Origin: Hydrogenophilales bacterium
GTDB lineage: Bacteria > Pseudomonadota > Gammaproteobacteria > Burkholderiales > Eutrophovitaceae
Reading direction: 5' to 3'
Assembly (NCBI GenBank): GCA_902601765.1
Contig: CACKOO010000001.1
Location: forward strand, 91,839 to 155,838
Length of the DNA: 64,000 nt
In this document: positions 1,560-47,422 of the stretch, piece by piece
Layout: each line of letters opens with the position of its first letter
Numbering within the stretch: position 1 is the stretch's first letter
Position numbers and translations under genes: made by a program
The notes under the pieces: generated by a model
Databases searched by the model: none
Seen by the model: the letters and a program-made list of their open reading frames with translations, nothing else
Told to the model about the DNA's origin: nothing

Positions 1560-1572
1560 TTTTAATTTAAAC

Positions 1573-1606: not shown

Positions 1607-1617
1607 ATCAACTTTAC

Positions 1618-2276: not shown

Positions 2277-2297
2277 GGTTTTACGTCTTTTTTTAAA

Positions 2298-2480: not shown

Positions 2481-2535
2481 GAAATGCCATAATGTTACCT
2501 TTATTCATTTAATACATATGGGAGATGCTCTAGAA

Positions 2536-6293: not shown

Positions 6294-6302
6294 TGAACCT
6301 GT

Positions 6303-7199: not shown

Positions 7200-7229
7200 G
7201 GGAGTATTAAAATTAAAAATCTCAAGCTT

Positions 7230-7805: not shown

Positions 7806-7811
7806 ATTGTT

Positions 7812-8684: not shown

Positions 8685-8711
8685 ACGTATCAGTTCTCCT
8701 TATAAGACCTC

Positions 8712-8741
8712 ATTCTAGCACTCTAATATCACGAGTGCCAA
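8712..8741 (-). promoter_or_regulatory. candidate sigma-70 promoter of rpoH
   Basis: On the minus strand, TTGGCA (8741-8736), an 18-nt spacer, then TAGAAT (8717-8712), 27 nt upstream of the ATG. The spacer contains the inverted repeat GCACTC-N9-GAGTGC. Confidence 0.35.
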
Positions 8742-8763
8742 CATTAATTTTAAATAATTGATT

Positions 8764-10319: not shown

Positions 10320-10374
10320 TATTGTTATTGATTGAATTACACCTAATAATGGTTAACCGTACTTTAAATATGAC

Positions 10375-11292: not shown

Positions 11293-11350
11293 TTTGAGTA
11301 AGTTATTAGCTAAGGTGTATTCTACACGCCAACCACGTTAAAATAACAGC

Positions 11351-11902: not shown

Positions 11903-12379
<477 letters not shown>

Positions 12380-12400
12380 TTTGGCGTAGGTAACAAAAAT

Positions 12401-12655
12401 ATGGCCTTAATAATTACCGATGAATGTATAAACTGTGATGTCTGCGAACCCGTGTGCCCGAATAATGCAATATCTGAAGGTGAGGAAATATACCAAATAG
12501 ATCCGCAAAAATGCACAGAGTGTGTGGGGCACTTTGATATTCCGCAATGCCAAGAATTGTGCCCGGTCGAATGTATACCCGTGGATTCTGCAAATATTGA
12601 ATCCAAAGTTCAACTCGAGGCGAAATACTTGTTCCTTACAAAAACATCGGTTTAA
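12401..12655 (+). CDS. yfhL: YfhL-type 4Fe-4S dicluster ferredoxin
   Basis: CINCDVCEPVCP plus CTECVGHF...CQELCPVEC, 84 aa. Confidence 0.85.
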   Translation: MALIITDECINCDVCEPVCPNNAISEGEEIYQIDPQKCTECVGHFDIPQCQELCPVECIPVDSANIESKVQLEAKYLFLTKTSV

Positions 12656-13476
12656 TTTATCTTCTGGCAATTTTTACAGAAGTAGGTAGCTCTCTGAAAA
12701 TAAGTTTTCTTGATTATATTAGACTCGCATTTTTTGCAAGGTAATTTTTCCCTATTATATACGTTGTAATTTTGTTGGAAGTAGCCTGGGATTCCATCGG
12801 CATTTACGTAGTCTTTTAACGAGCTGCCTCCGCACTTAATTGCGCTTCTAAGCGTTTCTTTGATAGCTTTTACAAGGATTTGGCACCTTTCTTTCGTAAG
12901 TTTTTCCCCAGGCAGTAACGGGTGAATTTTCGCTTTGAATAATGATTCATTGGCATAAATATTACCTACACCAGCTACTATCTCATTGTTCATAATAAGC
13001 GGTTTAATACTTGCTTGTCTGCGTTTTATTTTATTAAATAGCCAATCTCTGTTGAATTGATTGCCGAGAGGTTCCGGTGCGATTAGTTTTATCAGACGAT
13101 GTGCTAGCGGATCCTCAGGTTCCCATAAAACAGCTCCAAACCGTCTGGGATCGTTGAGTCTCAATACTAAGCCACTATCCATAAATAATTCAAAATGGTC
13201 GTGGAGCTTCCGTTTGCTATTCATGGGGACCACCCTTAGACTGCCTGACATTCCAAGATGAATAATTAGCCAACCAACTTCACAATTGAGTAGGAGATAT
13301 TTCCCACGCCGAGAAATCGCGATTATTTTTTTCCCAGGCAAATTATTTTTTATAGTTCCAAATGGAATAGGCCATCTCAAGTCTTGACGCTGGCAGCAAA
13401 CTTTATCGATAGTTTTATGTGTTATATGCCTCTCTATTCCTCTCCGGGTTGTTTCAACCTCAGGTAATTCTGGCAT
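12652..13476 (-). CDS. mutM: formamidopyrimidine-DNA glycosylase
   Basis: N-terminal MPELPEVET and C-terminal zinc finger CKKC...CKNCQ. Confidence 0.95.
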   Translation of the reverse strand: MPELPEVETTRRGIERHITHKTIDKVCCQRQDLRWPIPFGTIKNNLPGKKIIAISRRGKYLLLNCEVGWLIIHLGMSGSLRVVPMNSKRKLHDHFELFMDSGLVLRLNDPRRFGAVLWEPEDPLAHRLIKLIAPEPLGNQFNRDWLFNKIKRRQASIKPLIMNNEIVAGVGNIYANESLFKAKIHPLLPGEKLTKERCQILVKAIKETLRSAIKCGGSSLKDYVNADGIPGYFQQNYNVYNREKLPCKKCESNIIKKTYFQRATYFCKNCQKIN

Positions 13477-13480
13477 GGTG

Positions 13481-14365
13481 TTAAGCTTGCGATGCTACTA
13501 TTTCATAGGGATCCAAAAGCCGTTTACCAGCATCGTTGCCTAATTGATACCCTATCATTTCGTCTAGTCGAACAAACAAATAACCCCTATCGTTTTTAAT
13601 AATATTAAATTCAATGGTTTTACCTGATGATGTTTCTATTATCGCCTTGATACCACTGAGCGCGCCTTGATAGAATTCGGTACTCAGACTAGATGTCATT
13701 TCCCAGCCTTTGACCCAATGGTTAAAAGAGTCTGCAGATATATCCATATTGTGGGTTTTGGGGATTACTCCTTTCACTCGCCACGCTCCTGTATTTTTTT
13801 GTAAAACTTCCCAAGATTTGAAACTTATTACTTGCGGAATTTCATCGGAAGAAAGTAGTTTTCGGCTTAATAATTTCATAGGTTCATCAGGAACGCTGTA
13901 TCCCAGATGAGTAGCGACAAGATATAATTTCCCATCGGTTTCAAGGTATTGCTCATTGGTAACTGTATTTATGTTCCCAAATATAAACTTTTGAGAGTTA
14001 ATTGTAACTATAATCTCAGGTTGATTAAGGCCAAAACTAATACGGTCAAATTGGCTGGTGGAATAATTACTTCTAGCTTCGGCAATTTCAAGGACCCGGT
14101 CTATTTGAAACTCAGAAACTCTAGCTGTTACAGGACTGGTGATATGCCAAGTTTCACCAGACTTGCGCATCTTAATTTCGGCTCGATTTTTTCTCAGCAT
14201 GCCAATGCTCTTGATATTTTTTATTTGCAAATCCGAAATAGGTAAACTTCGATCTACTTTTGGAGTTGGCCAAAATTTAATAAAAAAAATAAGACTTATT
14301 ACAAAGCCGAAAAGAAATAGATTAATATAAAATTTGGATTTCAAGCTCTTCGTCTCCGCCACCAA
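13481..14365 (-). CDS. DUF4340-like membrane-anchored protein, last gene of the ABC/GldG-like operon
   Basis: One N-terminal TM helix followed by a soluble domain. The likelier start is TTG 14344, which forms a TTGA overlap with the upstream stop. Confidence 0.55.
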   Translation of the reverse strand: MVAETKSLKSKFYINLFLFGFVISLIFFIKFWPTPKVDRSLPISDLQIKNIKSIGMLRKNRAEIKMRKSGETWHITSPVTARVSEFQIDRVLEIAEARSNYSTSQFDRISFGLNQPEIIVTINSQKFIFGNINTVTNEQYLETDGKLYLVATHLGYSVPDEPMKLLSRKLLSSDEIPQVISFKSWEVLQKNTGAWRVKGVIPKTHNMDISADSFNHWVKGWEMTSSLSTEFYQGALSGIKAIIETSSGKTIEFNIIKNDRGYLFVRLDEMIGYQLGNDAGKRLLDPYEIVASQA

Positions 14366-33381: not shown

Positions 33382-33457
33382 GGGCGGTTAGCTCAGTTGG
33401 TAGAGCAGTGGACTTTTAATCCATTGGTCCAGGGTTCGAGTCCCTGACCGCCTACCA
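33382..33457 (+). tRNA. tRNA-Lys (anticodon UUU)
   Basis: GGGCGGTTAGCTCAGTTGGTAGAGC..., anticodon loop CTTTTAA, T-arm GGGTTCGAGTCCC, encoded CCA, 76 nt. Confidence 0.95.
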
Positions 33458-33463: not shown

Positions 33464-34573
33464 TTAGTTATTAGGAGAAAAAATTAGTGGTTTAATGCCC
33501 TGAATTTTCGGCGAGCCATTCTGGTCGCGAATAGTTAATGTGATTTTTTCTGCTTCCCAATCAATTTCTGCTGTCCCAAAATTTATGTTTGGATAAATTT
33601 TTCCAACTCGCAGAGGATCATCTATCTCTCTACCTCGAAAGCCATTCGTAAGGCTAGAGGCGGTGATTTCGTGTCTTGCACCACCACCGGGTAATTTTTC
33701 CCGATAGATAGCCCCAAAATGCCTATCCCCAGTAATGAAAATTATATTTCTTAGATGTTTTTGATTAAGTAATTGATAAAGTTTTTGCTTTTCATGAGGA
33801 AAATTGCCCCATTTTTCCCATCTATGTTGGTCAGCCATGATTTGTATTGAGGATACTATGAATCGGATTTCTGCTTCCTCACTTAGTTTCTCAGATAGCC
33901 AACTCCATTGTGTTGAGCCTAAGATAGTCGACGTTTTATCAAAATTAGGTAGGTAGGGACCTCTCCCTTTTGTATTGGAATTTCCCACTTTGAGGTCAGA
34001 TCGGAACCATCTGGTATCAAGAACTATTATTTGGACTCTTTTCCCAACAGGACCGAAAATTTGTGAGTAATATATTCCGTCTCTGAGCCATCTCTTATCA
34101 TTCTTTTTGACATTCCAAAATTGCATGAAAAAATCTTTTGAAGTTTCTTTAAAGGGAAGATTAGCTCCCACATCATTTTTCCCGTAATCATGATCATCCC
34201 ATGTAACCATATGGGGGATTAGGCCGCGAAGTCTATTGAATTCCGACTGTTTTTTTTCAGCCAAGTAATAAGAATCCAGCAAAGATTTTTCTAAATATTC
34301 TTCCCGCACCGAAATCCCATGTGTTTTATCTCCATAAACATTATCACCTAAAAATAAAAATAATTGCGGGTTATAGTTAATTATAGAGGGCCATATCGTT
34401 TGTGTTTTTTCTTCATCTGCGCATGATCCAAATGCTATTTTTTGCAAGACTTGATTTACAATTAAGTTCGTATTTGCCCCGTAAACTTGATTTACGATAG
34501 CGTAAACGAGTACAAAAGTACAAACGATATACATTCCACCGTATTTGCTAAAAGTTTTTGTAATTGGACACAT
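33464..34573 (-). CDS. PhoD-family metallophosphoesterase (alkaline phosphatase D-like), exported
   Basis: FGSCADEE, FLFLGDNVYGD, WDDHDYGKND and ITGDRHFGAIY. Hydrophobic Sec-type N-terminus with no twin-arginine. Only 4 bp downstream of the barrel gene. Confidence 0.78.
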   Translation of the reverse strand: MCPITKTFSKYGGMYIVCTFVLVYAIVNQVYGANTNLIVNQVLQKIAFGSCADEEKTQTIWPSIINYNPQLFLFLGDNVYGDKTHGISVREEYLEKSLLDSYYLAEKKQSEFNRLRGLIPHMVTWDDHDYGKNDVGANLPFKETSKDFFMQFWNVKKNDKRWLRDGIYYSQIFGPVGKRVQIIVLDTRWFRSDLKVGNSNTKGRGPYLPNFDKTSTILGSTQWSWLSEKLSEEAEIRFIVSSIQIMADQHRWEKWGNFPHEKQKLYQLLNQKHLRNIIFITGDRHFGAIYREKLPGGGARHEITASSLTNGFRGREIDDPLRVGKIYPNINFGTAEIDWEAEKITLTIRDQNGSPKIQGIKPLIFSPNN

Positions 34574-34577
34574 ACAA

Positions 34578-35774
34578 CTAGAAAAAAGTAATTAGCTCAA
34601 GGTTTATAAAATCATCCTTTCCGATTGAGGACAAAATATTTTTTTCATTAACATTAGAAAAAAATCTACCAGTTAATGCTATCTTGCAATCATCGTAAAG
34701 TCGCGACTCAGCTTCAATAGAATAAATAGCAGTTTGGTCTTGTCTATCAATCAAAGCGCCAACGAGCAGTGCGCTGCTATTCGTGTCGTTCAGAGAGTAT
34801 CTGAGTCCTAGAAATATATCGTTATTAGAAGAGCTTTGAGGTAGATAAGGCATATTCGCGTTATCGTACTGGTATTCTCCTAAAATTCCCAGGTCATGGC
34901 TTTCATAAATTCCGTAAATGGTATGTTCGAAACCAGCTACTGAGGCGAAGAATGTTTTTGACTGTCGTTTTTGAGATAGCACTTCCAGTTTAAGTAACCA
35001 CGATTCTGATGTGTGTTGTAGATCTATACCATTACGTCTAGATATAAAATATTCTGCTTGAAGCCGATCGTTTTCAGCGAATAACAAAGGTTCACGATTA
35101 ATTCCTCGAAAATGTGAAATACCAATATCTAGGTCGCCAAAATAGTTTTGATACCGAAGGGCATAGTCGAGGTGATTTTTACCGTGCGAGTTTTTATAAG
35201 TAGCGTTTTTATTAATCGGCAACCAGTTACTTAACCTCTTTTCTGGCGATGCAAACTCTTTTTGTCTAAAATAAGGCATTAAATATAGCGACACATCACC
35301 CCAATCTCTAAAAAGATTAAGTCGGATCATTGGTTGGCCCAATTTATCTTCACCGTCAGAAGCTTCGAGATTATCAACTTGGTTGATAACATCCACTAAA
35401 TGGAGAGACTCTGCAACCCCCCAGAACTCTCTAGCTAGTCCAATACTTAAATCATAACCTTCCGATATATATTGAAGGTATGCTTCACGAATATCCAAAT
35501 GACTTCTTTCGGCATCTTTTTGACTTTTTCTTGCGAACCCATGTAGAAATATTTTGTAACTGTCTATCCTATAATCTAATTTGGAATTAATTGATAAGGA
35601 TAAATTATTTTCATAATTTTCTTTTACTAAAACTTCCGACTTTTGCATGAACATTGTATGATCAACGCCCAGTTCGTTGGTATACGAAATATTTTTAGCA
35701 AAAGACGCTGTGTTTATTGTAATAAAAAAAAAACACCAAATGATGCAATCAGGCATCTTGATTTTTAGCATCAT
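34578..35774 (-). CDS. predicted outer-membrane beta-barrel protein of unknown family
   Basis: Signal peptide, alternating-pattern strands, aromatic C-terminus ...NLELITFF. ATGA overlap with the upstream LolA-like gene. Confidence 0.5.
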   Translation of the reverse strand: MMLKIKMPDCIIWCFFFITINTASFAKNISYTNELGVDHTMFMQKSEVLVKENYENNLSLSINSKLDYRIDSYKIFLHGFARKSQKDAERSHLDIREAYLQYISEGYDLSIGLAREFWGVAESLHLVDVINQVDNLEASDGEDKLGQPMIRLNLFRDWGDVSLYLMPYFRQKEFASPEKRLSNWLPINKNATYKNSHGKNHLDYALRYQNYFGDLDIGISHFRGINREPLLFAENDRLQAEYFISRRNGIDLQHTSESWLLKLEVLSQKRQSKTFFASVAGFEHTIYGIYESHDLGILGEYQYDNANMPYLPQSSSNNDIFLGLRYSLNDTNSSALLVGALIDRQDQTAIYSIEAESRLYDDCKIALTGRFFSNVNEKNILSSIGKDDFINLELITFF

Positions 35775-36577
35775 CTGATCCGTTTAAGTTTATTAGGTTT
35801 GAAGTTATTTTTGTTTAGTTTGACTTCAAAATCATATTTGCTAAACGTTAGCAGCGTACTTTTCTTTGTTTGATGATTCGTCATTTCGAGGGTTAACGCT
35901 CGCCAATATCTGTTTTTGAATTTTTTGAAATTACTGAAAACAAGAGTTTTTAACAATGCATTTCTTCTATCATAATAATCGACTTTATTCACCCTGTAGT
36001 GGGCGTGGTCTATCCAAACTAATTGTCGAGTGTATCCAGAATTTTCATAAACTGGAATTCTCTCCATTAAAAAGCATTTACTTTTCGCAGTTATGCAAGA
36101 CTCATCCTTTAAGTATTTATATTTATATTTTTCCACCTCGAAGGAAAGCAAATCTTCATATGCAAACTCTGACCCCATAAAAGGACCAGATTTATTTTTC
36201 GAGGATATTCGTTTTACTCTTTTAAGAGCTGGAAGGTAAAGCCATTGATCATCAGGTTTAAAAACTTTTGTATGAGAGAGAAAAGCCGTTCCTTTAACAT
36301 CACCTGGGGTATCAAAAATAGTCAAAGATAGATCTCCTAGTCCTTTCTCTGATCTTTCTAATGACGAGATTCGAATCTGTCTTTCAGATGTTTCCCCATT
36401 CGAATTTCGTAAAAGCATTTTTAAATTTACTGTGCTAGCTCCCCAACCCAGGTCTCGACGGTCAGTTTCTTTCGCAATTGCTATTCCTTTTTCATCGCCT
36501 AACGCCAACGTAGATATCAGAGAAAAGATGGTAAAGACTATAGCTATTAAAGTACTTTGGTTAGTTTTATTTTTCAC
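35771..36577 (-). CDS. LolA-like 'outer-membrane lipoprotein-sorting' fold protein (periplasmic)
   Basis: Signal peptide plus DQWLYLPALKRVKRISSKNKSGPFMGSEFAYEDL, which I recall as typical of the LolA_like family usually paired with COG1033 exporters. Confidence 0.72.
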   Translation of the reverse strand: MKNKTNQSTLIAIVFTIFSLISTLALGDEKGIAIAKETDRRDLGWGASTVNLKMLLRNSNGETSERQIRISSLERSEKGLGDLSLTIFDTPGDVKGTAFLSHTKVFKPDDQWLYLPALKRVKRISSKNKSGPFMGSEFAYEDLLSFEVEKYKYKYLKDESCITAKSKCFLMERIPVYENSGYTRQLVWIDHAHYRVNKVDYYDRRNALLKTLVFSNFKKFKNRYWRALTLEMTNHQTKKSTLLTFSKYDFEVKLNKNNFKPNKLKRIR

Positions 36578-36604
36578 GTATTAAACTCCAATAAGGATAG
36601 TTTA

Positions 36605-38926
36605 TTAATTTGGCTGAGCAATCGGTGTATATTTTCTTTTATCAAGAAGTAATAATAAGGGAGGTAGTAACAAAAAATCCGTTATCAGAGCTAAGCCAAC
36701 GGCTAAGGCTGTCAATTGTCCTTGGACGGCATTTAGTTGGAATGTAGACATTGCTAGGACTGAGAAGCCAGCTACAATTACTAAAGTTGTAACTGATAAT
36801 GCCTTGCCTACAGTGGTAAAAGCATATCTAATGGCATCTTCGGGTGAATGACCGAACTCTTGCCGGCCTCTTTGGTACTTAGATAAAAAGTGTACGGTAT
36901 CATCCACAATTATTCCCAGTGATGTTGCTGTGATAACCGAGGCTGCCAGACCCACTTCACCCACTAAAACGGCCCAAATACCGAAGGCCATTCCAGCTGG
37001 AAGAAGATTGGGCACAAGGCTAATAATACCAAGTCTCCAGTCTTTCAAGGCAAAAACTAGTAACCCGGAAATTAATATAAGGGCCAAAGTCGTGCCTAAA
37101 AGCATAGTGTTAATGTTTCGTTCGGTAATATACGCAAATAATGCGAATGTCCCGGTAGCTTGCTTGTTCTCTACATGAGAAAAATTATCTTCCAGCCACA
37201 CTTTAGCAGCTCTATCTAGTTTTTGTAGTTCGCGTGTAGAAATATTCTCAAGGGTCGCTATTATTCGGGTAGAAGATTTATCCACACTGATTTGATTATT
37301 TAGGTCCAGCCCTTGTGGAAGAGACATTTCGTACAGTAGTAGGTATTGTGCTGCTAAATTTCTCTCATCTGGTAATTTATAGTAATCCTGGTCATCACCG
37401 TGCATATTTTTGTTAAGCCTTTTGAAAGTGTCAGTAATAGATGACACATGAACTACACTTTCTTGTTTGCGCAAAAAGTTCGCAAATTTTTCGAGTTGAG
37501 ATAAATAGTTTGGATCTGCAATTCCTCCCGAAGTTTTTGCCGGAATTGACCACTCTGTTCTGTAGACACCGGTCAAGTTTTCCAACGCAAAATCTGCAGC
37601 TTGTCTAAATGGCATAGATTCATCAAAGTAATTAACGAATTCATCATTCAGTTCAATTCGTGGAATCATGGCAAACAGGGAAATGGCTACAATGCTGCAA
37701 GTTATTAACAGTTTATTTTTGTTTTTGATGACGCTTTCCGCAAGCTTTTCCATAATATTTCCTTCAGATGAATTCGGCTTTGCTTTTATTGGAAAAATAG
37801 CGGCAAGAGCCGGTAGCAGAGTCATCGATAACGCCCAAGCTGCAGTTACCCCAAGTGCACAGATATTGCCCAAATCATTGAAGGGAGGCGCATCAGAAAA
37901 GTTTAATGTCAAAAAGCCTATTACCGTGGTTAGACTTGTTAGGAAAACTGGCCAGCAATTCACTCGGAGTGACTCTTCAATTGCTTTCCATCGACTCTTA
38001 CCACCTCTCATCTCTTTGAACATGGTTGTTAGAATATGAATCGCATCGGCTACGGCTAAGGTCATAATAACTACTGTAGCTCCAGCTGAAGGAGTTGACA
38101 TATCGATTCCTAGAGCTCCTGCTATTCCCCATCCTGTTAACACGGAGAATGCTATTATAAATATAGTAATAATTACGGCTCCTACAGACCTCAGAAGAAT
38201 AGCTAGCGTCACTAAAAGAACGAGGATCATTCCTGGAAATAGCGTTTTTCCGTCGGCTTGACTGGATTCAAAAAAAGCACTGTTAAGTGCTATATTACCT
38301 ACAATCTCCAGTCGGACCCCTGGGTTGCTCTGTTCAAAACGTTTGGCAATTTCGCGTGCTTTTGCCATTGCTAAAGGCACTTCATTGACTGACTTATTTG
38401 GTAAAGTGAGATTGGCACTGACTGCAGTAGTTCGTCCGTCTTTAGAAATTAACAGATCTTTTATCAGAGGCTCATTCAAGGCTATTGTTCTGATATTTTC
38501 GGCTTCTTGAATAGTTACAGGTTTATCAAATTCCACCAAGTCGCGAACTGTTAAATCGTCTCCTTCAGCGTAGCTGTGCTGGAAATTCGCAATAGAACTC
38601 ACCCTAGTAGTGAACGGTATTTGCCAAAATTCTTCGGTGAGTTCTCGTAAGTTATCTAAAAATTGCGGTTGAAATATATCCCCATTATTAGGTTGAAGGA
38701 CAAACTGAAGAACATCGTTACGAGAGTATGTATTTTGTAATTTCTCGTAAGCAGCTAGCTGAGGGTTTTCCTTAGAGAAAAAAATTCGATAATCCGTTTG
38801 AAATTGAATAGATTTCATGCCCGTTGCTATAAATAGAACTATAAGGATGCTAGATATACTTACTACCCAACGCCACCGGATGATGAATTCGGCGAAATTA
38901 CCAACACTACTTTGCATATTTTTCAT
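36605..38926 (-). CDS. RND-superfamily exporter, MMPL/COG1033 (HpnN-like) type
   Basis: 773 aa with two 6-TM bundles, each preceded by a periplasmic domain. Contains SLGIIVDDTVHFLSKY and TLAVADAIHIL. Confidence 0.85.
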   Translation of the reverse strand: MKNMQSSVGNFAEFIIRWRWVVSISSILIVLFIATGMKSIQFQTDYRIFFSKENPQLAAYEKLQNTYSRNDVLQFVLQPNNGDIFQPQFLDNLRELTEEFWQIPFTTRVSSIANFQHSYAEGDDLTVRDLVEFDKPVTIQEAENIRTIALNEPLIKDLLISKDGRTTAVSANLTLPNKSVNEVPLAMAKAREIAKRFEQSNPGVRLEIVGNIALNSAFFESSQADGKTLFPGMILVLLVTLAILLRSVGAVIITIFIIAFSVLTGWGIAGALGIDMSTPSAGATVVIMTLAVADAIHILTTMFKEMRGGKSRWKAIEESLRVNCWPVFLTSLTTVIGFLTLNFSDAPPFNDLGNICALGVTAAWALSMTLLPALAAIFPIKAKPNSSEGNIMEKLAESVIKNKNKLLITCSIVAISLFAMIPRIELNDEFVNYFDESMPFRQAADFALENLTGVYRTEWSIPAKTSGGIADPNYLSQLEKFANFLRKQESVVHVSSITDTFKRLNKNMHGDDQDYYKLPDERNLAAQYLLLYEMSLPQGLDLNNQISVDKSSTRIIATLENISTRELQKLDRAAKVWLEDNFSHVENKQATGTFALFAYITERNINTMLLGTTLALILISGLLVFALKDWRLGIISLVPNLLPAGMAFGIWAVLVGEVGLAASVITATSLGIIVDDTVHFLSKYQRGRQEFGHSPEDAIRYAFTTVGKALSVTTLVIVAGFSVLAMSTFQLNAVQGQLTALAVGLALITDFLLLPPLLLLLDKRKYTPIAQPN

Positions 38927-39100
38927 GGGTGACTTTCTTTTAAAAAATTACTAGATTACTGTTATTAAGTAATTAAGTTTTTGAGGTGCAAAACCTCCTA
39001 CACCCGCGAATTATGGCGTATATCATCTCCATAAGTAAGTGGGAATTTCATTTTATAAGGAGCACACTTATGAGGTAATGGTTTTTTCGTGGATTTAGAT

Positions 39101-39163
39101 GCCCGGATCGACAGTGTAAACAATATTTAGTTTACAGCACTCTAAGGGAAGTACGATCCGGGC
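39101..39163. promoter_or_regulatory. nested inverted repeats: a 10-bp GC-rich outer stem enclosing a 22-bp palindrome (candidate operator or 5'-UTR structure)
   Basis: Outer stem GCCCGGATCG (39101-39110) / CGATCCGGGC (39154-39163). Inner TGTAAAC-aatattta-GTTTACA (39115-39136). Confidence 0.45.
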
Positions 39164-39204
39164 AAAAACTGAGTCGCTTTATTCTACTAGTGTAAAAACG
39201 ATGT

Positions 39205-39223
39205 ATGTTAACACTGTCAACAT
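39205..39223. promoter_or_regulatory. 19-bp imperfect palindrome, candidate TetR operator
   Basis: ATGTTAACACTGTCAACAT, with 16 of 19 positions self-complementary. It overlaps the -10/+1 region of the predicted RND-operon promoter. Confidence 0.4.
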
Positions 39224-39251
39224 TGTAAATGAGAACGGTTATTGTTGTCAA
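39222..39251 (-). promoter_or_regulatory. candidate sigma-70 promoter of the RND operon
   Basis: On the minus strand, TTGACA (39251-39246), 18 nt, TACAAT (39227-39222). This implies a 5' UTR of about 290 nt containing the nested hairpin. Confidence 0.4.
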
Positions 39252-39322
39252 CGTATGAATGGTTATGTAAGGTTTATGTGGGCAGTTGTATAATCAATTT
39301 ATTAAATTAAATTAAAATAAAA

Positions 39323-39979
39323 ATGGAAAAACCGCTGAAGGCTAGGAAAATGAAATACCATCACGGAAATTTGCGGGAGCAGTTATTGGGTGATGCACGA
39401 GACTTGTTGGAGGAGGTAGGTCACAGTAGCATTTGTCTTAGAGAATTAGCGAGAAGGTCGGGTGTATCCCACGCAGCCCCTTATCGGCATTTTAAAGACA
39501 AAAAAGCCCTTTTAAAAGCATTAGTGCTTGAAGGGCACAGCCTAGTTCAAAGGATTTCGGCTAAATCGATAGAATCCCCTGATCCAAAAGAAAAACTCTT
39601 TAGGACCATGACGCGTTACGTTCAATTTGGGCTAGCAAACCCAGAGTTACATCAACTTATTTTTGGCTCTAATTCGTTATCTTACACAGATGCAGATGTT
39701 CGCTTTGAAGCAGATACAAGTCTGAAAAAATTTGTTGTTATTGTGCACGCAGCGCTACCGGAAAAGAAGAAAATCGATGCCAATTTGATTGGTCTGTCGT
39801 TATGGTCACTTGCTCATGGTGTATTGCTGTTAACACCTAATCCTAAAAAAATAGATGGCGGTATTTGTCAAAGATCTGTTACGGATGCTAGCTCTTATAT
39901 GAAATCGCTTCGCCACGGTATGGAAGCGTTAATTTCTGAATCAGTTGGGGAAAAATGGAAAAACCCGTATCTTTTTTAA
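39323..39979 (+). CDS. TetR/AcrR family transcriptional regulator
   Basis: YHHGNLREQLL... and the HTH LRELARRSGVSHAAPYRHF. Divergent from the RND operon. ATG 39350 is an alternative start. TATAAT at 39289-39294. Confidence 0.85.
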   Translation: MEKPLKARKMKYHHGNLREQLLGDARDLLEEVGHSSICLRELARRSGVSHAAPYRHFKDKKALLKALVLEGHSLVQRISAKSIESPDPKEKLFRTMTRYVQFGLANPELHQLIFGSNSLSYTDADVRFEADTSLKKFVVIVHAALPEKKKIDANLIGLSLWSLAHGVLLLTPNPKKIDGGICQRSVTDASSYMKSLRHGMEALISESVGEKWKNPYLF

Positions 39980-39994: not shown

Positions 39995-41200
39995 TTAAAA
40001 TTTGTAAAGTAGCTTAACACTTAGTTTGTCACTTTCTCTTTCTGGTTCATTTCGTTCATCTGGCTCTGCATCTTCCTTTCTGTCATATTGAAATGTAAAC
40101 CAGCCACTATAGAAATTTAAATCTAAACCTAAAGTATATCGCCAGCTAGATTCTCTAAGATTATGAAGAGATGAGTGATAGAGAGTATTAGGACTATTTC
40201 CATAGAAAGCCATAGGATTGGATGCTGTACTGGAATCTAGAATATATTCTATCCTCGCATAGGGTCGAAATTTTCCATGAGGAGTTAATAAATCATGCGT
40301 CACTAGTATCCCAAAATATGATTTGATAAGTATGAGTTTTTGTTCTGAAAATGATACCCCTAAAGAGGTTCCGCTTTCTTGGTAAGGACGTAAGTTCGTA
40401 AAACCGATATCGATTCGAGAATACGGGTTAATTGAAAAATCACCATATTGTAAATCTTTAATCAAGCTAGCTGACTGGTAGATCTGGTAACTCTGTCGTT
40501 CGCTTTTTAGAAAATTACCTGAGGACTTTCTCTGTGAGTAACTGCTTAGTTTATTTATGCCATAGGTTGTATTCAGATAATAATTGCCCGCTAGCCCTAA
40601 TCTAAAATAGGTCGAAAGTCCTATGTCGTTAGTCGTTAGTCGGGAACCATTAAATCCGGCTTCTGATTTATCTTCACCTGATTCCAATGTAAATCCCCAA
40701 AGAGCATTTTGTCTAAAATATTTTTCCATTCCAATCGTTAATCCATCTGTCTGATACACGATAGATGGTTCGTAAATATTCTTACCTATTTCACCGATTT
40801 CAACGCTAGCTACTGACCAATAGCTCCAGTTATCATGCTTTTCGGAATCTTCTAAACTATTAGCCAAATGGACAGATATTGATGATTTAAATTGGTTTTC
40901 GTATCTTTTAATATCACTAACGGGTTTTGTATCTGCGGTTTCTATTAGGTGACTTGTAGATAAGGTCTTTGCGACGTATAGCCCATCTTTAGCGCTTATC
41001 CTGCGGTTATTCCAAATCTTGTTAAGTCTCAGGATAATCGGGTCAATCGAATTTCCTACTCGGCGATGCATTAATTGAGACTGTGCTTGATAAGCTCCTG
41101 CAATGTCGCTAGTCTGCCAGGGATTAGAGTTAGCATTACCTAGGAATAAAAGCCATAAAAAAAAACTTAAAGTAAAGAAAGAAGCACTTCTTAAAATCAT
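39995..41200 (-). CDS. autotransporter-type outer-membrane beta-barrel protein with almost no passenger
   Basis: Signal peptide MILRSASFFTLSFFLWLLFLGNANS. About 100 aa precede a barrel of roughly 280 aa with W/G/Y-rich alternating strands. C-terminus ...SVKLLYKF. Confidence 0.55.
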   Translation of the reverse strand: MILRSASFFTLSFFLWLLFLGNANSNPWQTSDIAGAYQAQSQLMHRRVGNSIDPIILRLNKIWNNRRISAKDGLYVAKTLSTSHLIETADTKPVSDIKRYENQFKSSISVHLANSLEDSEKHDNWSYWSVASVEIGEIGKNIYEPSIVYQTDGLTIGMEKYFRQNALWGFTLESGEDKSEAGFNGSRLTTNDIGLSTYFRLGLAGNYYLNTTYGINKLSSYSQRKSSGNFLKSERQSYQIYQSASLIKDLQYGDFSINPYSRIDIGFTNLRPYQESGTSLGVSFSEQKLILIKSYFGILVTHDLLTPHGKFRPYARIEYILDSSTASNPMAFYGNSPNTLYHSSLHNLRESSWRYTLGLDLNFYSGWFTFQYDRKEDAEPDERNEPERESDKLSVKLLYKF

Positions 41201-41287: not shown

Positions 41288-42166
41288 TTAATTATCTTTA
41301 TGCCGAATGCGAATCCACTCAACAAATACCATATGCGGCACGGTGAGAGCCGATAGCCCGATAAAAACCACCTGAATTAAAGATGTTTCTATCGGGCCTT
41401 GGGTAATGTTAGAAAGTAATTTAAAGCTAATAAAACCTAAAACGAGGGTGATTACTGTTATCGGAATTGACCAATAGAAAAGTCTCATTAGACTGGCATG
41501 GTCAAATAAATAAGAAATTTCCGAAAAATGTTTTAAACTGTGGAACAAACAAAAGTACGCTGTGAAATACGCTAAGGGATCGCAAACTTTAGCAAGAAAT
41601 ACTAAAACCAAGAGTTCTAGTATTTGCCTCCCACTTATTCTCCGAAATAACAAAAGACAAGCGAGATATATACCTCCAATCAATGTGACAAATTGAATGG
41701 CTTCCACCAGAATATCGTTTTTTGAGTTTTGATTGAGAATATCAAAGATTACCAATACATCATTTGGAGAAAAAATAGTGGGAAGCCCAAGAATGATGAA
41801 GCCAGAAATTATACGTTGCGAAAAATTAATCGGATAGTCACCACCAAAGTGAAAAGCCGACATTACTAGAAATGTTGCTAACATAATTTGTGGAATTTGC
41901 GTCCAAAAAAATATGGTAAAGATGGTCAGTGTGATATATCCAAACAACACACTAACGACTTGTTTTTCAGGCCATAGAATACGGATCAGCCTAAAGTCTA
42001 ACGCGCCATGTGGAATTCCGAATAATGAAATAAAAATCACGGATATTAAGACCGAAGAGGAGCTAAATGTATGTGGGAAAAAATGTAAACTAATAATAAT
42101 TAAAATACATCCACCGATTGATAAACTTTTTAAGCGATCCCACTCAATTTTACTAGATATATTCAT
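41288..42166 (-). CDS. blh: Brp/Blh family beta-carotene 15,15'-dioxygenase (retinal synthesis)
   Basis: 292 aa polytopic protein with GIPHGALD and further conserved His residues (FHFGGD, FHSLKH). It is the last gene of the crt cluster next to the rhodopsin. Confidence 0.8.
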   Translation of the reverse strand: MNISSKIEWDRLKSLSIGGCILIIISLHFFPHTFSSSSVLISVIFISLFGIPHGALDFRLIRILWPEKQVVSVLFGYITLTIFTIFFWTQIPQIMLATFLVMSAFHFGGDYPINFSQRIISGFIILGLPTIFSPNDVLVIFDILNQNSKNDILVEAIQFVTLIGGIYLACLLLFRRISGRQILELLVLVFLAKVCDPLAYFTAYFCLFHSLKHFSEISYLFDHASLMRLFYWSIPITVITLVLGFISFKLLSNITQGPIETSLIQVVFIGLSALTVPHMVFVEWIRIRHKDN

Positions 42167-42169
42167 ATA

Positions 42170-43363
42170 TTATTTTTTTTCCTTAGTGCAAGAAAGTATA
42201 GCGATTCTCAGGGCAGCTAATACCATTTCTTTTTTTGGACTTGTTAATATAACTTTGAAGAGATCTGTCAGGTTTGCTTTGTCGCCCATAAATCTTGCAA
42301 AGACATTGGGGTGTAGGCTTTTCCCCATATTTAATAATGTTTGTACTATAGATGCAGGAGATTTTTTTAAAACCATTAAGAACACTCTGTCCATAAAATC
42401 TTGAGTAGTTTGAATAATTTTCCATTTGGTAATTGTGTGACATTTTAATATTCGACTAGCTGTTTCCTGGGACCAAATTTCAATTCTTGAGAAAGCGTAA
42501 CCGCTAGCTGGTCTGAGAGCTCCCCAGTTTGACCCTCCTTGAATTGCTCCAGGGATTGGTTCTCGAGGATATGTTCCTGATTGAAGCAATACTCCCTTCT
42601 CGGTTCGTTGAATTTGCCAATTGCGACCCAGAATTTGATTAGCGTTTAGCGTAGCCTCCTCTTTTAGGTGATCTGGAGTAAAATATTTTGTTCCGATATA
42701 TGTTATTTGAAGAAGCATAGAGTTATCTGTTAACGGTAATAGATATTTAAAATAAATCCCAGATTTATCGTGTCTGATATCGTCCATTAATTTGACAGAT
42801 GCAGATTGAAACAAATTACTTTTGAAGGTAATCTCATATCCATAAAAAATTTGCCAAGTCGCATTTTTTACTTTGTCGGGTTTTTTATAACGACAGTCAA
42901 TAATTTGTTTTGAAGAATACAAGCCAGAATCGGTTTTAACGAGAAAACCATCCTGACCTTTATTAATTTTGTTGACTTCAACTCCCAGCTTAATAGAGAT
43001 GTTGGGGCTGTCCTTGATCAAAGATAGAGACCTTTCGTAGAAATCTATCCCTCTGAGACAAAAATATTCATATTGGTGAGACTTATGGGTGAAATGCATC
43101 GAATCGGTACTCGATGAAAATGACCACTGGCGCCAATGATTAGCTGCCCATTCGCAATACCCTGAGGAACCATCATTCCAAAAGCTCCATGTTCTATCGT
43201 TAGTATATGTTTTTCTGGCTTCTAGAATAAGAATTTTCGGATAATTCTTTAAAACAACCCCACCTTTGATTTTCCAAATAAGCTGATTAGAAAGCTGTAA
43301 CCCGGAACACCCTCCTCCGAGTATTAAGATATCGTACTTTTCTGTTATTTTAGTTGTCTGCAC
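42170..43363 (-). CDS. crtY: lycopene beta-cyclase
   Basis: FAD fold YDILILGGGCSGLQL, 397 aa, positioned between crtB and blh. Confidence 0.85.
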   Translation of the reverse strand: MQTTKITEKYDILILGGGCSGLQLSNQLIWKIKGGVVLKNYPKILILEARKTYTNDRTWSFWNDGSSGYCEWAANHWRQWSFSSSTDSMHFTHKSHQYEYFCLRGIDFYERSLSLIKDSPNISIKLGVEVNKINKGQDGFLVKTDSGLYSSKQIIDCRYKKPDKVKNATWQIFYGYEITFKSNLFQSASVKLMDDIRHDKSGIYFKYLLPLTDNSMLLQITYIGTKYFTPDHLKEEATLNANQILGRNWQIQRTEKGVLLQSGTYPREPIPGAIQGGSNWGALRPASGYAFSRIEIWSQETASRILKCHTITKWKIIQTTQDFMDRVFLMVLKKSPASIVQTLLNMGKSLHPNVFARFMGDKANLTDLFKVILTSPKKEMVLAALRIAILSCTKEKK

Positions 43364-44265
43364 TCTTTAATGATTGCTTCATGAAGTTCGGCTTTGTGTG
43401 GTACATTCCTGTATAACTTTATTATCAACACGTTAAAGCTCGCGTTTATTATCAACATTATTTTCCTTAGAATATTAACGTAACTTCGTTTCCTCCAATT
43501 CACGCAATTTGTTTTTAAAATAGACCTTCCAATTTGACGGTATATGACTGCAGCAGAATAAATTGCCATTTTAGTACCCCAAGGAAGGTACTTGAGTCCG
43601 TCTAGTCCACTTTTATAATAATCTTCGGCAAGGCAAATTATTTTTTTAATACTTAACTTTATTACCCTATCATTATCATTTGTTACGGATAATATTTCCT
43701 CCGGAGAAATGTTTCCACAAGTATGACCTGGCAAATATCTACGACCAAGTTCGGCATCCGCATATACATCTCGGCATATATTTGTCAGTTGCATCGCTAT
43801 CCCTAGATCAACAGCATGTTTCCAAGAGGATTCAACGTTTTTTGCTTTGAGTATGGTGCACATCATTAGTCCGACCGTACCAGCTACCCCATAGCAATAT
43901 CGAATTAATTCATCTTGTGTTTTTATCAGCACTTTACCTAAGTCGGACTTAACGGTTTCTATTAATTGCGTTGCCGGTATTATTCCACCGAAACCTTGTT
44001 TGAGTATATTTCGAACCTCGCTTACCAAATCATCGACATGGCTGTCACTGATCAGACCGGAGTTAATTTTTCCAAGCATGTAAAGAGCTCTGTAACTATC
44101 TTCAGCCTCATCAGCGATATCATCAACCCATCGGCAAAAGCTATAAAGCGTGGCAGCTTGATCAAGGGTGTATTTTGGTAGGAGAAGACCTGCGACATAG
44201 AAAGTACTGCTATTTCTTTTTAGAATAGTCCTCCGTTTTCTTTTTTCTTGATCAGATGATGCCAT
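43345..44265 (-). CDS. crtB: phytoene synthase
   Basis: Squalene/phytoene synthase motifs FCRWVDDIADE, YCYGVAGTVGLM and NICRDVYADAELGRRYLP. Confidence 0.9.
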   Translation of the reverse strand: MASSDQEKRKRRTILKRNSSTFYVAGLLLPKYTLDQAATLYSFCRWVDDIADEAEDSYRALYMLGKINSGLISDSHVDDLVSEVRNILKQGFGGIIPATQLIETVKSDLGKVLIKTQDELIRYCYGVAGTVGLMMCTILKAKNVESSWKHAVDLGIAMQLTNICRDVYADAELGRRYLPGHTCGNISPEEILSVTNDNDRVIKLSIKKIICLAEDYYKSGLDGLKYLPWGTKMAIYSAAVIYRQIGRSILKTNCVNWRKRSYVNILRKIMLIINASFNVLIIKLYRNVPHKAELHEAIIKECRQLK

Positions 44266-44278
44266 GATTAGGTTTTAT

Positions 44279-45745
44279 TCAGAGAAATGAATCGACCACT
44301 TTTGCGGAGCACAAAACCCCTGGCAACCCTGCTCCGGGATGTGTTCCAGCTCCTACTAAGTAGAGATTCTCAACTCCCTCACCCTTGTTGTGGTATCGAA
44401 ACCATGCCGATTGATAAAACAGTGGTGAAATAGAAAATCCCGCGCCGTGTTGCGATAGGTAATCGTTTTTAAAATCATCGGGTGTCATGAAAAAACTGTC
44501 GATTATATTTTTATTTAATCCGGGCAACATCGTTTTATTTAACGCCGAAACAATTCTGTCGGCGTAAGCTTGCCCCTCTTCCTTCCAATTTATGTTGGCT
44601 GTTAAATTAGGTACTGGGGATAGTACGTAAAAAGAGTCACAATCAGGAGGAGCAAAAGACGGGTCCGTAGCGGTAGGTCGATGAACATATAAAGAAAAAT
44701 CTGCGGGCAATACTTTACCGTAGAAAATATCATTTAGTAATTCTTTGTAGCGTTTCCCAAGCCATATTGTATGGTGTGCCACTTGTGTATATTTTTTTGT
44801 TGTTCCAAAGAATAGAACAAAAAGCCCCATGGAGTAGCGAGCATATTTCTCACGGATCTTAATTTTCCAGTTTTTTTTGTATTTATAGCCACTGATATTT
44901 TTGTATAAATTTACGGGGTCAACGTTGGATATAACAATATCACAGGCAATAGTTTCCAATTTGTCAGTTTCTAATGCTACAATTTTGTTCGCTACAGTTT
45001 TGATATTTTTGATTTCTCTGTTTAGTTGTACATTTACTCCTTCTTCGATTAATAGTTTTCCTATTGCCGATACCAATGCTCCCGTACCTCCCATCGGATA
45101 GTGTATGCCCCATTTACGTTCTAGATAATGTATCAAACTGTAAATGCTAGTAGTATCAAAAGGATTCCCACCTACCAAAAGAGGCTGAATACTAAAAGCT
45201 TGGCGAATTTTGTCATTTAAAATGTGGCTGGATATAAATTTCCATACTGATCGGTACGCTTTTAATCGAATCATCGCAGGAACTTGTTGCAGCATAAAAA
45301 TAAAATTGTGGAATGGTTTAGCTGAAAGTTGATTAAAACCTATTTCAAATATTTTTTCTGATTCTAGAAGAATTTTTTTATATCCTATCACGTCAGATGG
45401 ATTGAGAGCTTCGATTTGTTTGAGAGTATGGTTAATATCCTTGGTGTAATCAAAATTTGTTCCATCTGGAAAGATAAACCGGTACCATAAATCTAGCTCT
45501 TTAAGATCAACATAATTACGCATATCTTTGTCAAACAATTGAAACAGTTCTTCAAGCAACCATGGCGCCGTGATTACTGTTGGACCAGCATCATGCTTAA
45601 AGCCATTTCTCTCAAAAACTCTTGCGCGCCCACCTAGTTGCCCTCCTTTTTCAAGGAGGGTCACGGTGTAACCTTTGGCTCGCGCCCTTAAAGCGGCTGC
45701 AAGCCCCCCAAATCCGGCTCCTATTACGACAACGTGTTTATCCAC
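44279..45745 (-). CDS. crtI: phytoene desaturase
   Basis: VVVIGAGFGGLAAALR Rossmann fold, 488 aa, C-terminal VGAGTHPGAGLPGV. Confidence 0.93.
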   Translation of the reverse strand: MDKHVVVIGAGFGGLAAALRARAKGYTVTLLEKGGQLGGRARVFERNGFKHDAGPTVITAPWLLEELFQLFDKDMRNYVDLKELDLWYRFIFPDGTNFDYTKDINHTLKQIEALNPSDVIGYKKILLESEKIFEIGFNQLSAKPFHNFIFMLQQVPAMIRLKAYRSVWKFISSHILNDKIRQAFSIQPLLVGGNPFDTTSIYSLIHYLERKWGIHYPMGGTGALVSAIGKLLIEEGVNVQLNREIKNIKTVANKIVALETDKLETIACDIVISNVDPVNLYKNISGYKYKKNWKIKIREKYARYSMGLFVLFFGTTKKYTQVAHHTIWLGKRYKELLNDIFYGKVLPADFSLYVHRPTATDPSFAPPDCDSFYVLSPVPNLTANINWKEEGQAYADRIVSALNKTMLPGLNKNIIDSFFMTPDDFKNDYLSQHGAGFSISPLFYQSAWFRYHNKGEGVENLYLVGAGTHPGAGLPGVLCSAKVVDSFL

Positions 45746-45752
45746 AAGATAT

Positions 45753-46664
45753 TCAATTAATAAAAAGAGTATTTAAATCGTTAGCGATTTCTATTAAGGC
45801 TTTACCAGCACATTTTGGTATCTTCTTGGCATTAATTATCGCATCATTAATTTTTTCCTTGGTTAAAAGTTTTACAGATTCAAAACCTTGAGACCTAAGA
45901 ATATCAGAGGAAACTATCAGGACCGCGTTTAGCTCACGACTTCCATTCTTTTTTATTCTACGTAAATTTTGCCAGTCTTTTAAATCATCAACTAACTGGT
46001 AAGCAACCCCAAGATCTCTCGCAGCTTCCGAGACGACAGTCGATCCGTTATCAAGATTTGCTACTACTAAAGCAAGTTCCACAGGAAGACCAATTAATGG
46101 CCCCGATTTCGCCGCAGCTAATTCGCAATAGTCGAAAAGAGAAATTTTTGAGACATGACTTGCTAAGTCTCCTCCTTGACCATAAATTGTGGTTCGAATA
46201 GAGTCATGCGTTTTATTTAATAGTATTGGCATAGGAGCGAGTTTAAGTAAATCACCAAGAACTCTGTATGCGGCCGAAATCATAAGATCTCCCAAGCAAA
46301 TTGCAACATCTTCTCCGAACTTTAGCCAGACACTTTCAACCCCTCGTCTTTGGGTGTCTTTATCTTGTATATCATCATGGATTAGTGAAGCGTTGTGCAG
46401 TAGTTCGCATATTGATGCTATTAAAACCGCAATTTCGGTCGAAAGCTCTAATGTTTTTGCCGTCTGAATAGCAATTTGGGCGCGTATTCTTTTTCCACCA
46501 CAGCACAAGTGGTAATTTAGGGCTTCGTTTACTTTGGAATATTTGGAAATAGATTTATCGGCTAAGCAATGTTGGAGCATTTTTTTTTCCATCAGTCGGA
46601 GTGGCCCTAGAAACTCCGTTTTTACCAAATGCGATGTGGTCTGACTGGGGAAAACAGGATCCAT
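45753..46664 (-). CDS. crtE: geranylgeranyl diphosphate synthase (polyprenyl synthetase)
   Basis: Asp-rich motifs LIHDDIQDKD and QLVDDLKD. It is the first gene after the rhodopsin terminator. Confidence 0.85.
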   Translation of the reverse strand: MDPVFPSQTTSHLVKTEFLGPLRLMEKKMLQHCLADKSISKYSKVNEALNYHLCCGGKRIRAQIAIQTAKTLELSTEIAVLIASICELLHNASLIHDDIQDKDTQRRGVESVWLKFGEDVAICLGDLMISAAYRVLGDLLKLAPMPILLNKTHDSIRTTIYGQGGDLASHVSKISLFDYCELAAAKSGPLIGLPVELALVVANLDNGSTVVSEAARDLGVAYQLVDDLKDWQNLRRIKKNGSRELNAVLIVSSDILRSQGFESVKLLTKEKINDAIINAKKIPKCAGKALIEIANDLNTLFIN

Positions 46665-46677
46665 ATCTCATTACTCC

Positions 46678-46721
46678 AAAAAAAAATCGCCGACCCAAAA
46701 AGAACCAATTCGGTCGGCGAT
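46678..46721 (-). terminator. rho-independent terminator after the rhodopsin gene
   Basis: On the minus strand, ATCGCCGACC (46721-46712), a 16-nt loop, GGTCGGCGAT (46695-46686), then T9 (46686-46678). The crtE SD GGAG (46677-46674) starts at the very next base. Confidence 0.75.
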
Positions 46722-46744
46722 TTTGTTACGTCAAAAAATTAATT

Positions 46745-47422
46745 TTAGGCATTTTCAGAGTTGGCAGCTGACCAAATCATTAAGCCGAAAGCTATCTTGT
46801 TTACAACATCAGCTAAATTGTAGATTGCATTTAAAGAGGCAGCGTCGACCGTCTCTCCGATATAACCAAAAATATAACCGAGTGGGTAAATCGCCCAACC
46901 AACTAGAACTATTAGTCTCATTGTCCTGAAGGCTGACTGCACTCCTTCTGGAGCCTCACTCAATCTTGACTGTGCATCTCCAGCAAATATTTGGAATATT
47001 ATATAAATCCAGCCAGCCATTCCTATAACGAAGCCTAGCCAAACATTTACGTATCCAGCTTCTCCCAAATACCCGGCAATTAGCATTACAAAAGAGGCTA
47101 CCATGAGTCTCATAAAGACACCGCCAGCTACTGCCCCGACAGCCGCCAAAATCAAGTAAAATTCTATGATTTGAAGGGGAACTGTAATAATCCAATCTAC
47201 GTATCTAAATACGAGAGGGCTCTCACCTGTGTCTACCCAAATTTGTCTCATGTAAAAATAATGTATGGCTGCAACCAGGGTTACTAGGGCTGCAACTGTT
47301 AGGGAAGTTTTCCATTTGGCAGAAGCACGGTTAGCTTCCATAAGGAAGAAAACGGTGGAGGCAACCATTGCAACTGAGATTACCCAAAAGGTGATTCCGA
47401 CAAAATCGTCGATTGGTAGCAT
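46745..47422 (-). CDS. proteorhodopsin (light-driven proton pump), blue-tuned variant
   Basis: SAKWKTSLTV, RYVDWIITVPLQIIEFYLIL (D76, T80, E87 give a DTE motif; Q84 lies at the tuning site equivalent to residue 105 of green PR), and NLADVVNKIAFG (Schiff-base K209). SD AGGAG lies 6 nt upstream. Confidence 0.95.
   Translation of the reverse strand: MLPIDDFVGITFWVISVAMVASTVFFLMEANRASAKWKTSLTVAALVTLVAAIHYFYMRQIWVDTGESPLVFRYVDWIITVPLQIIEFYLILAAVGAVAGGVFMRLMVASFVMLIAGYLGEAGYVNVWLGFVIGMAGWIYIIFQIFAGDAQSRLSEAPEGVQSAFRTMRLIVLVGWAIYPLGYIFGYIGETVDAASLNAIYNLADVVNKIAFGLMIWSAANSENA

Follow-up and report, generated by a model that had tools for sequence, protein, structure and literature searches.

The window analysed here is a stretch of 64,000 nucleotides from a Hydrogenophilales bacterium (GenBank assembly GCA_902601765.1, contig CACKOO010000001.1, positions 91,839 to 155,838 of the forward strand), and our subject is a gene cluster within it, in which four packed minus-strand genes encode a pump of the MMPL type, a LolA-like carrier, an outer-membrane β-barrel and a PhoD-family phosphoesterase, with a TetR-family regulator transcribed divergently across 396 bp (Table 1). 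This layout had been described in a first-pass annotation made from the sequence alone, and the table of open reading frames (ORFs) reproduces its coordinates exactly. The pump and carrier genes are separated by 27 bp, the carrier and barrel genes overlap by 4 nt (an ATGA, because the barrel gene starts with ATG and the overlapping stop codon is therefore TGA), and 4 bp lie between the barrel and PhoD-family genes, the latter ending 6 bp from a convergent tRNA-Lys(UUU) gene, which delimits the unit. These closely spaced genes form a genuine operon. Searches with hidden Markov models (Pfam, NCBIfam) also upheld the earlier family assignments to MMPL, LolA_like, PhoD and TetR, and the divergent region, which had been called palindrome-rich, contains six inverted repeats.

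Table 1. Positions, strands and supporting evidence for the features discussed in the text, numbered from the first base of the window
Feature	Position	Strand	Basis
tRNA-Lys(UUU)	33382..33457	+	
Short exported PhoD-family phosphoesterase, 369 aa	34573..33464	-	PhoD PF09423 7.2e-22 (Pfam)
Outer-membrane β-barrel, unannotated family, 398 aa, C-terminus ...NLELITFF	35774..34578	-	model and family features
Periplasmic LolA-like carrier, PF17131 (alias TP_0789-like), 268 aa	36577..35771	-	LolA_like 2.1e-58 (Pfam)
MMPL/HAE3-like inner-membrane pump of the RND superfamily, 773 aa	38926..36605	-	MMPL PF03176 1.9e-38, two stretches (Pfam)
Divergent regulatory region, 396 bp, between TetR and pump genes	38927..39322	.	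six inverted repeats
Structured element in predicted 290-nt leader	39090..39175; 65-nt element 39164..39100	-	11-bp outer stem, invariant 15-mer, inner hairpin
Candidate TetR operator, repeat GTTGACA-GT-GTTAACA right after the -10 box	39206..39221	-	read from sequence
Predicted sigma-70-like promoter facing the pump, TTGACA-N18-TACAAT	39251..39222	-	region's best consensus match, 11/12
TetR-family regulator, 218 aa	39323..39979	+	TetR_N PF00440 5.6e-09, 36.1 bits vs 24; TetR_C_33 4.6e-06 (Pfam)
Protein of 401 aa, essentially an autotransporter β-domain, between blh and TetR	39995..41200	-	autotransporter β-domain 4.1e-20
Standard complete proteorhodopsin module: rhodopsin (46745..47422), crtE, crtI, crtB, crtY, blh	41288..47422	-	Pfam

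Judged by its matches to sequence models, the pump falls on the MMPL/HAE3 side of the RND (resistance-nodulation-division) superfamily and not on the drug-efflux HAE1 side, in agreement with the earlier proposal of a lipid-type rather than a drug-efflux transporter. Its best NCBIfam match is the HAE3 model TIGR00921 (198.6 bits, under the cut-off of 351.9), and HAE1 models score far lower, with a partial ACR_tran match of 30.6 bits and 29.2 bits against the 2200 required for OqxB. The hopanoid transporter HpnN, an HAE3 protein of the same broad subfamily, differs from the window pump in that the latter scores far under both HpnN models (97.5 bits against 751.85 required, and 43.9 against 1100), and in that HpnN acts without dedicated periplasmic or outer-membrane partners (PMC6394551). 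Two MMPL-type transmembrane repeats (PF03176) are present, and a hydropathy scan, albeit a crude method, gives peaks at residues 15–33, 234–424 and 609–761 with gaps of ~200 aa at 34–233 and 425–608, which fits a topology of one transmembrane segment (TM1), a large loop, TM2–7, a second large loop and TM8–12. The closest solved chains are those of MmpL4/5, to which the similarity is weak (E ~5e-08), and the nearest named homologues come from entries labelled “Proteobacteria bacterium” or from alphaproteobacteria at ~55% identity.

The carrier matches PF17131 over its full length (197.5 bits against a threshold of 30, profile positions 4–184 of 184), with an additional partial match to DUF1329 in Pfam. 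Among solved structures, the structural-genomics entry 3BK5, from Vibrio parahaemolyticus, is closely homologous to it (2.7e-87), and its homology to LolA3 from Porphyromonas gingivalis (9TP6, 7.2e-30) is clear. The carrier has a Sec-type signal peptide without a lipobox, a motif found in only two of 66 homologues. A canonical LolA is recognized by a conserved arginine on the β2–β3 loop and by its pairing with LolB, and among the relatives considered here the status of these two features is known for LolA3 only, which has been crystallized, lacks the arginine, interacts very weakly with LolB and is inferred by its authors to have a separate function (PMC13103446).

That the third gene encodes an outer-membrane barrel, as first proposed, is supported by an AlphaFold model built from a 26-sequence alignment, which has a mean predicted local distance difference test (pLDDT) score of 81.7, a predicted template-modeling (pTM) score of 0.77 and ~20 strand elements. 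Foldseek searches of the Protein Data Bank (PDB) with this model return generic 16–18-stranded barrels (OmpM1, OmpF/OmpC and AlgE) at template-modeling scores of 0.5–0.56 and 8–13% identity, with a probability of 1.00 against porins and AlgE. The protein combines a signal peptide, an all-β barrel and a C-terminal aromatic residue, as is characteristic of outer-membrane substrates of the β-barrel assembly machinery, and 85 of 86 homologues end in F or Y. Some family members (P0388, P0371, P0369, P0417, P0377, P0401) have N-terminal extensions of 150–360 aa with AMIN, SPOR or OmpA peptidoglycan-binding domains, which, together with the aromatic C-terminus, fits a protein of the outer membrane whose N-terminus is periplasmic. 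In the model, the best-conserved stretch of the family, WGVxESxHLVDVINQ, follows strand element 5 and precedes element 6, where it would form extracellular loop 3 with a short helix, and by analogy with porins this loop may fold into the lumen.

At the level of sequence, the barrel stands outside the characterized porin families. A match to such a family, which the first-pass annotation had named as an observation that would speak against its proposal, was not found: neither Pfam nor NCBIfam assigns the protein to a family even at E = 10, and none of the porin and exporter barrel families Porin_1/4, Alginate_exp, Wzi, DUF1302 and FadL was matched at family threshold. Scanning 26 homologues gave only subthreshold hints to Wzi, PelB-C and Alginate_exp, the best matches overall being Alginate_exp (E 0.075) and, in some homologues, Wzi (E 0.0068), and a profile of the family searched against PDB sequences gave only noise. 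The family is nevertheless large, with 1585 matches in a word-indexed search and 3419 clusters at 50% identity in an exhaustive profile search, 1434 of these at E ≤ 1e-30. Separately from the cassette described below, barrel homologues occur at two loci (L044 and L057, positions 6400–14000) that lack both pump and carrier; there they lie downstream of genes for a histidine kinase and a sigma-54 response regulator, and in L044 a 905-aa TPR protein comes next. The barrel seems to serve another purpose at these sites. We also note that a clade member, a metagenome contig of 7403 bp (L194), is 82% identical to the window in the pump and 75% in the carrier, compared to 56% in PhoD and 44% in the barrel, which suggests, on the basis of these sequences, that the surface-exposed component evolves fast.

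The last gene of the operon encodes a protein with an evident PhoD core (78.4 bits against a threshold of 27 for PF09423), in which the signature motifs GDNVYGD, TWDDHD and GDRH align with those of the metallophosphatase core of Bacillus subtilis PhoD (2YEQ). It differs from PhoD proper in that it lacks PhoD_N (PF16655) and a twin-arginine translocation (Tat) signal, scores 42.8 bits against the 1000 of the equivalog model, is aligned at E 3e-07 only, and has 369 aa where the 2YEQ chain has 527 residues. The earlier remark that no Tat motif is present holds, in that the N-terminus contains no twin arginine; the signal peptide is of the Sec type, and the catalytic motifs are intact. This short PhoD type is very common, with more than 6800 matches, and occurs without the other genes in Microvirga and in an unrelated 364-kb ENA contig.

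With each species represented by one genome, at least 589 genomes were found to encode a barrel relative, and linkage was counted by mapping the window proteins by tblastn onto the 80 best loci. Where enough upstream DNA was available (60 loci), the order MMPL pump, LolA-like carrier, barrel on one strand recurs in 51, two of these (L026 and L028, with overlapping genes) having been added by hand. The carriers of this cassette belong to the Pseudomonadota, Acidobacteriota, Verrucomicrobiota (Akkermansiaceae), Desulfobacterota (Desulfobulbaceae), Hydrogenedentes and Bacteroidota (Flavobacteriaceae). A recurrence of this extent indicates that pump, carrier and barrel are not juxtaposed by chance. 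In 35 of the 51 loci, the ORF immediately upstream of the pump encodes a TetR_N protein, whereas clustering of all ORFs places no family besides the cassette in more than eight of 82 loci, and the gene behind the barrel differs at almost every locus. Because the order recurs, TetR lies upstream and no other family recurs, we consider the regulator, pump, carrier and barrel to be a conserved unit, as the first-pass annotation had supposed for these components, and the window, with the same order as its relatives, contains one copy of it. The core of the operon thereby belongs to a widespread, repeatedly observed envelope cassette that is functionally uncharacterized.

Two variants of the cassette bear on how its parts work together. 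In eight of 61 loci, the pump and LolA-like genes are fused into one frame of ~1060–1100 codons, and these natural fusions argue for a partnership between pump and carrier. In one locus from a Rhodobacter metagenome-assembled genome (MAG; L024, positions 5896–11170) there is no pump, and two FtsX/MacB permeases and an ABC ATPase (YHS domain) precede the LolA-like and barrel genes instead. The RND/MMPL pumps and ABC transporters of the MacB type characterized so far work outward, and the occurrence of two unrelated outward-acting inner-membrane machines ahead of the same carrier–barrel pair is the strongest argument at hand for export as the direction of transport.

The PhoD-family gene does not share this conservation. 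Its status as a linked fourth component was the main novelty claim of the first-pass annotation, which had itself named a lack of conserved linkage as grounds for abandoning it, and a PhoD-like gene lies behind the barrel in none of the 78 other loci with downstream DNA. The adjacency occurs only in the window's own clade (L083, L084–L086, L087 and L194, of which L087 is from assembly GCA_902627495.1), the members of which are 44–52% identical to the window in the barrel and 53–62% in PhoD. In this clade, the flanking gene order is also kept over ~20 kb wherever the contigs reach; in L087, the longest contig, yebC, ruvCAB, ybgC, tolQRAB, pal and cpoB lie on one side, and TetR, the autotransporter-domain protein, blh, crtY, crtB and crtI on the other. 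As the whole neighborhood is collinear, the adjacency of barrel and PhoD genes carries little functional signal. In the lineage of the window, PhoD is, from the arrangement of the genes, very probably co-transcribed with the barrel, because only 4 bp separate the genes and the junction contains no terminator-like site. Consensus scans for promoters and terminators, however, gave no more sites than shuffled sequence, so that they speak neither for nor against an internal PhoD promoter. The gene is most likely a lineage-specific passenger or accessory and not a defining part of the cassette, and the link to a phosphodiesterase, a local trait confined to a single marine lineage, does not permit generalization.

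The 396-bp divergent region is partly conserved in the diverged relatives L083 and L087. The TTGACA −35 box of the predicted promoter is kept at the equivalent position in relatives, and the repeat that follows its −10 box, a candidate TetR operator, has the equivalents GTTTACA-GC-GTTTACA in L180 and GTTGACA-AA-GTAAACA in L194. The half-site of this repeat recurs downstream as the inner hairpin of a structured element in the predicted leader (UGUAAAC-N8-GUUUACA in RNA, TGTAAAC-N8-GTTTACA in DNA), which also contains an invariant 15-mer, CUUCCCUUAGAGUGC (DNA form CTTCCCTTAGAGTGC). The element has a fold z-score of −6.45 and forms a separate domain when the whole leader is folded; five diverged sequences show pairing in 96.5% of cells, with compensatory changes in five pairs. 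There are seven G-U cells, which would read as A-C mismatches on the opposite strand and thus point to an RNA of the same sense as the pump gene. No Rfam family matches the element, a covariance model found no copies outside the window's clade, and a metagenome scan for the 15-mer returned 120 stretches, nearly all of them chance matches, with true relatives only in L180 and L194. We therefore regard the element as a candidate cis-regulatory RNA, for which these five sequences provide moderate evidence, and the inner hairpin may possibly serve as a palindromic protein-binding site.

Similar arrangements are on record, such that the earlier designation of the system as undescribed was too strong. 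In P. gingivalis, the transcriptional unit PG1178–81 comprises a TetR regulator (PG1181), an MMPL protein (PG1180), an “outer membrane lipoprotein-sorting protein” (PG1179, formerly a conserved hypothetical) and a hypothetical protein (PG1178) (PMC11018363). It is stress- and haem-regulated, being among the genes most strongly induced at haem or iron limitation (PMC10470040, PMC10434189), and Prevotella intermedia has several copies of similar composition (PMC10434189). The annotated content and order, TetR, MMPL, LolA-like, hypothetical, are those of the window (PMC10434189, PMC10470040, PMC11018363), whereas the phylum is different, ABC ATPase genes lie nearby, PhoD is absent, and the unit is linked to haem/iron-limitation induction and nitric oxide stress; the comparison is one by annotation, in which both the equivalence of PG1178 to the barrel and that of LolA3 (PGN0947) to PG1179 are presumed. 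A fused version has appeared in proteomics of Thalassolituus oleivorans, where TOL_3187 is described as an MMPL protein with a LolA-like domain, an arrangement equivalent to the eight fusions counted here, and is followed by TOL_3188, a predicted porin without recognized domains (PMC6304351). This pair differs from the window in that pump and carrier are one polypeptide and in that the data on it are limited to proteomic induction on n-C28, and TOL_3188 is likened to the barrel by description.

The AmeABCD system of Castellaniella defragrans, which confers tolerance to hydrophobic monoterpenes, combines an HAE3 RND pump with a DUF1302 outer-membrane protein, a DUF1329 protein of the LolA superfamily and a COG4447 protein (PMC6394551), which shows that an HAE3-type pump can act together with partners from the LolA superfamily and the outer membrane. 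The window cluster is nevertheless not of the AmeABCD type: the barrel has no DUF1302 match, the carrier is a PF17131 protein of 268 aa instead of 451 aa, and neither COG4447 nor any other fourth conserved partner gene is present, leaving three structural genes against four. The LolCDE–LolA–LolB pathway follows the same logic as the cassette, with extraction at the inner membrane, a periplasmic carrier of LolA fold and acceptance at the outer membrane, and L024 even has a MacB/FtsX-type ABC engine; in the cassette, however, the acceptor is an integral barrel rather than the lipoprotein LolB, and the usual engine is an RND pump. In the papers on PG1178–81, LolA3, Thalassolituus and AmeABCD, no cargo or mechanism is defined for these units, and the barrel is not recognized as a family.

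Taken together, we consider it somewhat favored, with a probability of roughly 0.6, that the locus represents a single copy of a self-contained, widespread cassette, made up of a TetR repressor gene and three structural genes, by which a hydrophobic or amphiphilic molecule is carried from the inner membrane outward, with PhoD as an accessory. In such a system, TetR would bind the repeats around the conserved sigma-70 promoter and be released by a ligand. The MMPL/HAE3-type pump would then, as expected from its family, draw cargo out of the inner membrane or the periplasm at the expense of the proton gradient and pass it to the PF17131 LolA-like protein, a partnership that the fusions support. 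The dedicated barrel, the gene linkage of which is strict, would take over the cargo at the outer membrane. In the marine lineage, the gene for a Sec-exported short PhoD has been joined to the 3′ end of this unit and is probably co-transcribed with it.

Several observations weigh against this account. The resemblance of PG1178 and TOL_3188 to the barrel is one of annotation or description, and the induction of the Thalassolituus proteins on a C28 alkane could mean uptake rather than export. Furthermore, the gap between barrel and PhoD is 0–8 bp in every clade member seen, even though the barrels are only 44–52% identical, which is compatible with coupling, and in a Kiloniellales MAG (L056, positions 1572–3344) a canonical PhoD_N plus PhoD protein of 590 aa is encoded directly upstream of TetR, the sole other PhoD neighbor among the 80 genome loci. 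With ~160 flanking positions and a few PhoD genes per genome, this last case is close to what chance would give (expectation ~0.1, P ~0.09, as a rough estimate).

The two observations on PhoD bear on the idea, put forward in the first-pass annotation, of one four-protein system, in which PhoD would process a phosphoester cargo or scavenge phosphate from a transported lipid, for example, under phosphate limitation. The close spacing without a terminator-like site, the retention of the adjacency in all clade relatives, the signal peptide and intact catalytic motifs of the enzyme, and the independent locus L056 are all in its favor, whereas the absence of PhoD behind the barrel in the 78 other loci, the unspecific retention of the entire gene order in the clade, the existence of the short PhoD type without the cassette, and a frequency of PhoD neighbors near chance speak against it, as does the finding that the window contains no Pho box of the E. 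coli type (a consensus that may not fit this host). We consider this reading unlikely. A still more doubtful alternative reverses the direction, such that the cassette would serve the uptake or surface capture of very hydrophobic nutrients (long-chain alkanes or lipids), with the barrel as entry channel and the LolA-like protein as inward carrier. Several of the cassette carriers belong to hydrocarbon-associated genera (Cycloclasticus, Porticoccus). In Thalassolituus, TOL_3187 is up 42-fold on n-C28, and TOL_3188 is detected only there (PMC6304351). Uptake would, however, run counter to the outward action of the characterized relatives of the pump and to the MacB-type engine that takes its place in L024; TetR control is typical of efflux, the likeness of TOL_3188 to the barrel is descriptive, and the window's genome has no alkane genes near the locus.

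By analogy with the mycobacterial siderophore exporters MmpL4/5, which are the closest solved relatives of the pump, the cassette might instead export an amphiphile related to iron or haem, for instance a lipidic siderophore or something akin to a porphyrin, and the P. gingivalis unit of TetR, MMPL, lipoprotein-sorting and hypothetical proteins, as one of the top-induced sets under haem/iron limitation (PMC10470040, PMC10434189), would fit such a role. The similarity to MmpL4/5 is weak, however, no siderophore biosynthesis genes recur beside the cassette, and the expression data come from a distant phylum, so that we regard this as the least probable of the three alternatives. Export of a hydrophobic or amphiphilic molecule by the three core proteins remains the reading we prefer.

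The surroundings of the operon add a few observations of their own. Beyond the regulator lies a standard complete proteorhodopsin module, and the suggestion that the cargo might be an isoprenoid, made because of these carotenoid and retinal genes, was rejected: in the 82 clustered loci, crt genes are not neighbors of the cassette outside the clade, the adjacency being as clade-specific as that of PhoD. The autotransporter-domain protein between blh and TetR is kept at the same place in L083, L087, L180 and L194, and its passenger, if there is one, is very short. On the other side, the tRNA-Lys(UUU) gene sits right behind cpoB. The order ruvCAB, tol-pal, cpoB, tRNA-Lys is, we presume, similar to that of Pseudomonas-type gammaproteobacteria (ruvCAB being seen in the relative L087), and the tRNA flank could mark an old insertion point of the cassette. 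The G+C content falls to 0.348 at window positions 34001–36000, which cover the barrel gene and adjoining parts of the PhoD and LolA-like genes, from ~0.39 in the flanks.

The locus itself is no surprise, and the system to which it belongs is a target of moderate interest for research on envelope lipid transport. The barrel family comprises more than 3400 clusters, with relatives encoded in 589 or more genomes that each represent a species, and is without a Pfam model or an assigned function, and the fusions and the variant with an ABC engine provide testable hints of a carrier-mediated export of hydrophobic molecules that does not depend on a TolC-type channel. It is conceivable, though we would not expect it, that the cassette is a general, unrecognized route in diderms by which a lipid passes from the inner to the outer membrane or leaves the cell, distinct from Lol, Lpt, Mla and TolC-type efflux, and that in this oligotrophic marine lineage PhoD was recruited to it for periplasmic processing of a phosphoester cargo or membrane lipid, under dual control by TetR and a new leader RNA. 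Identifying the cargo would help to clarify how lipids get across the envelope of Gram-negative bacteria.

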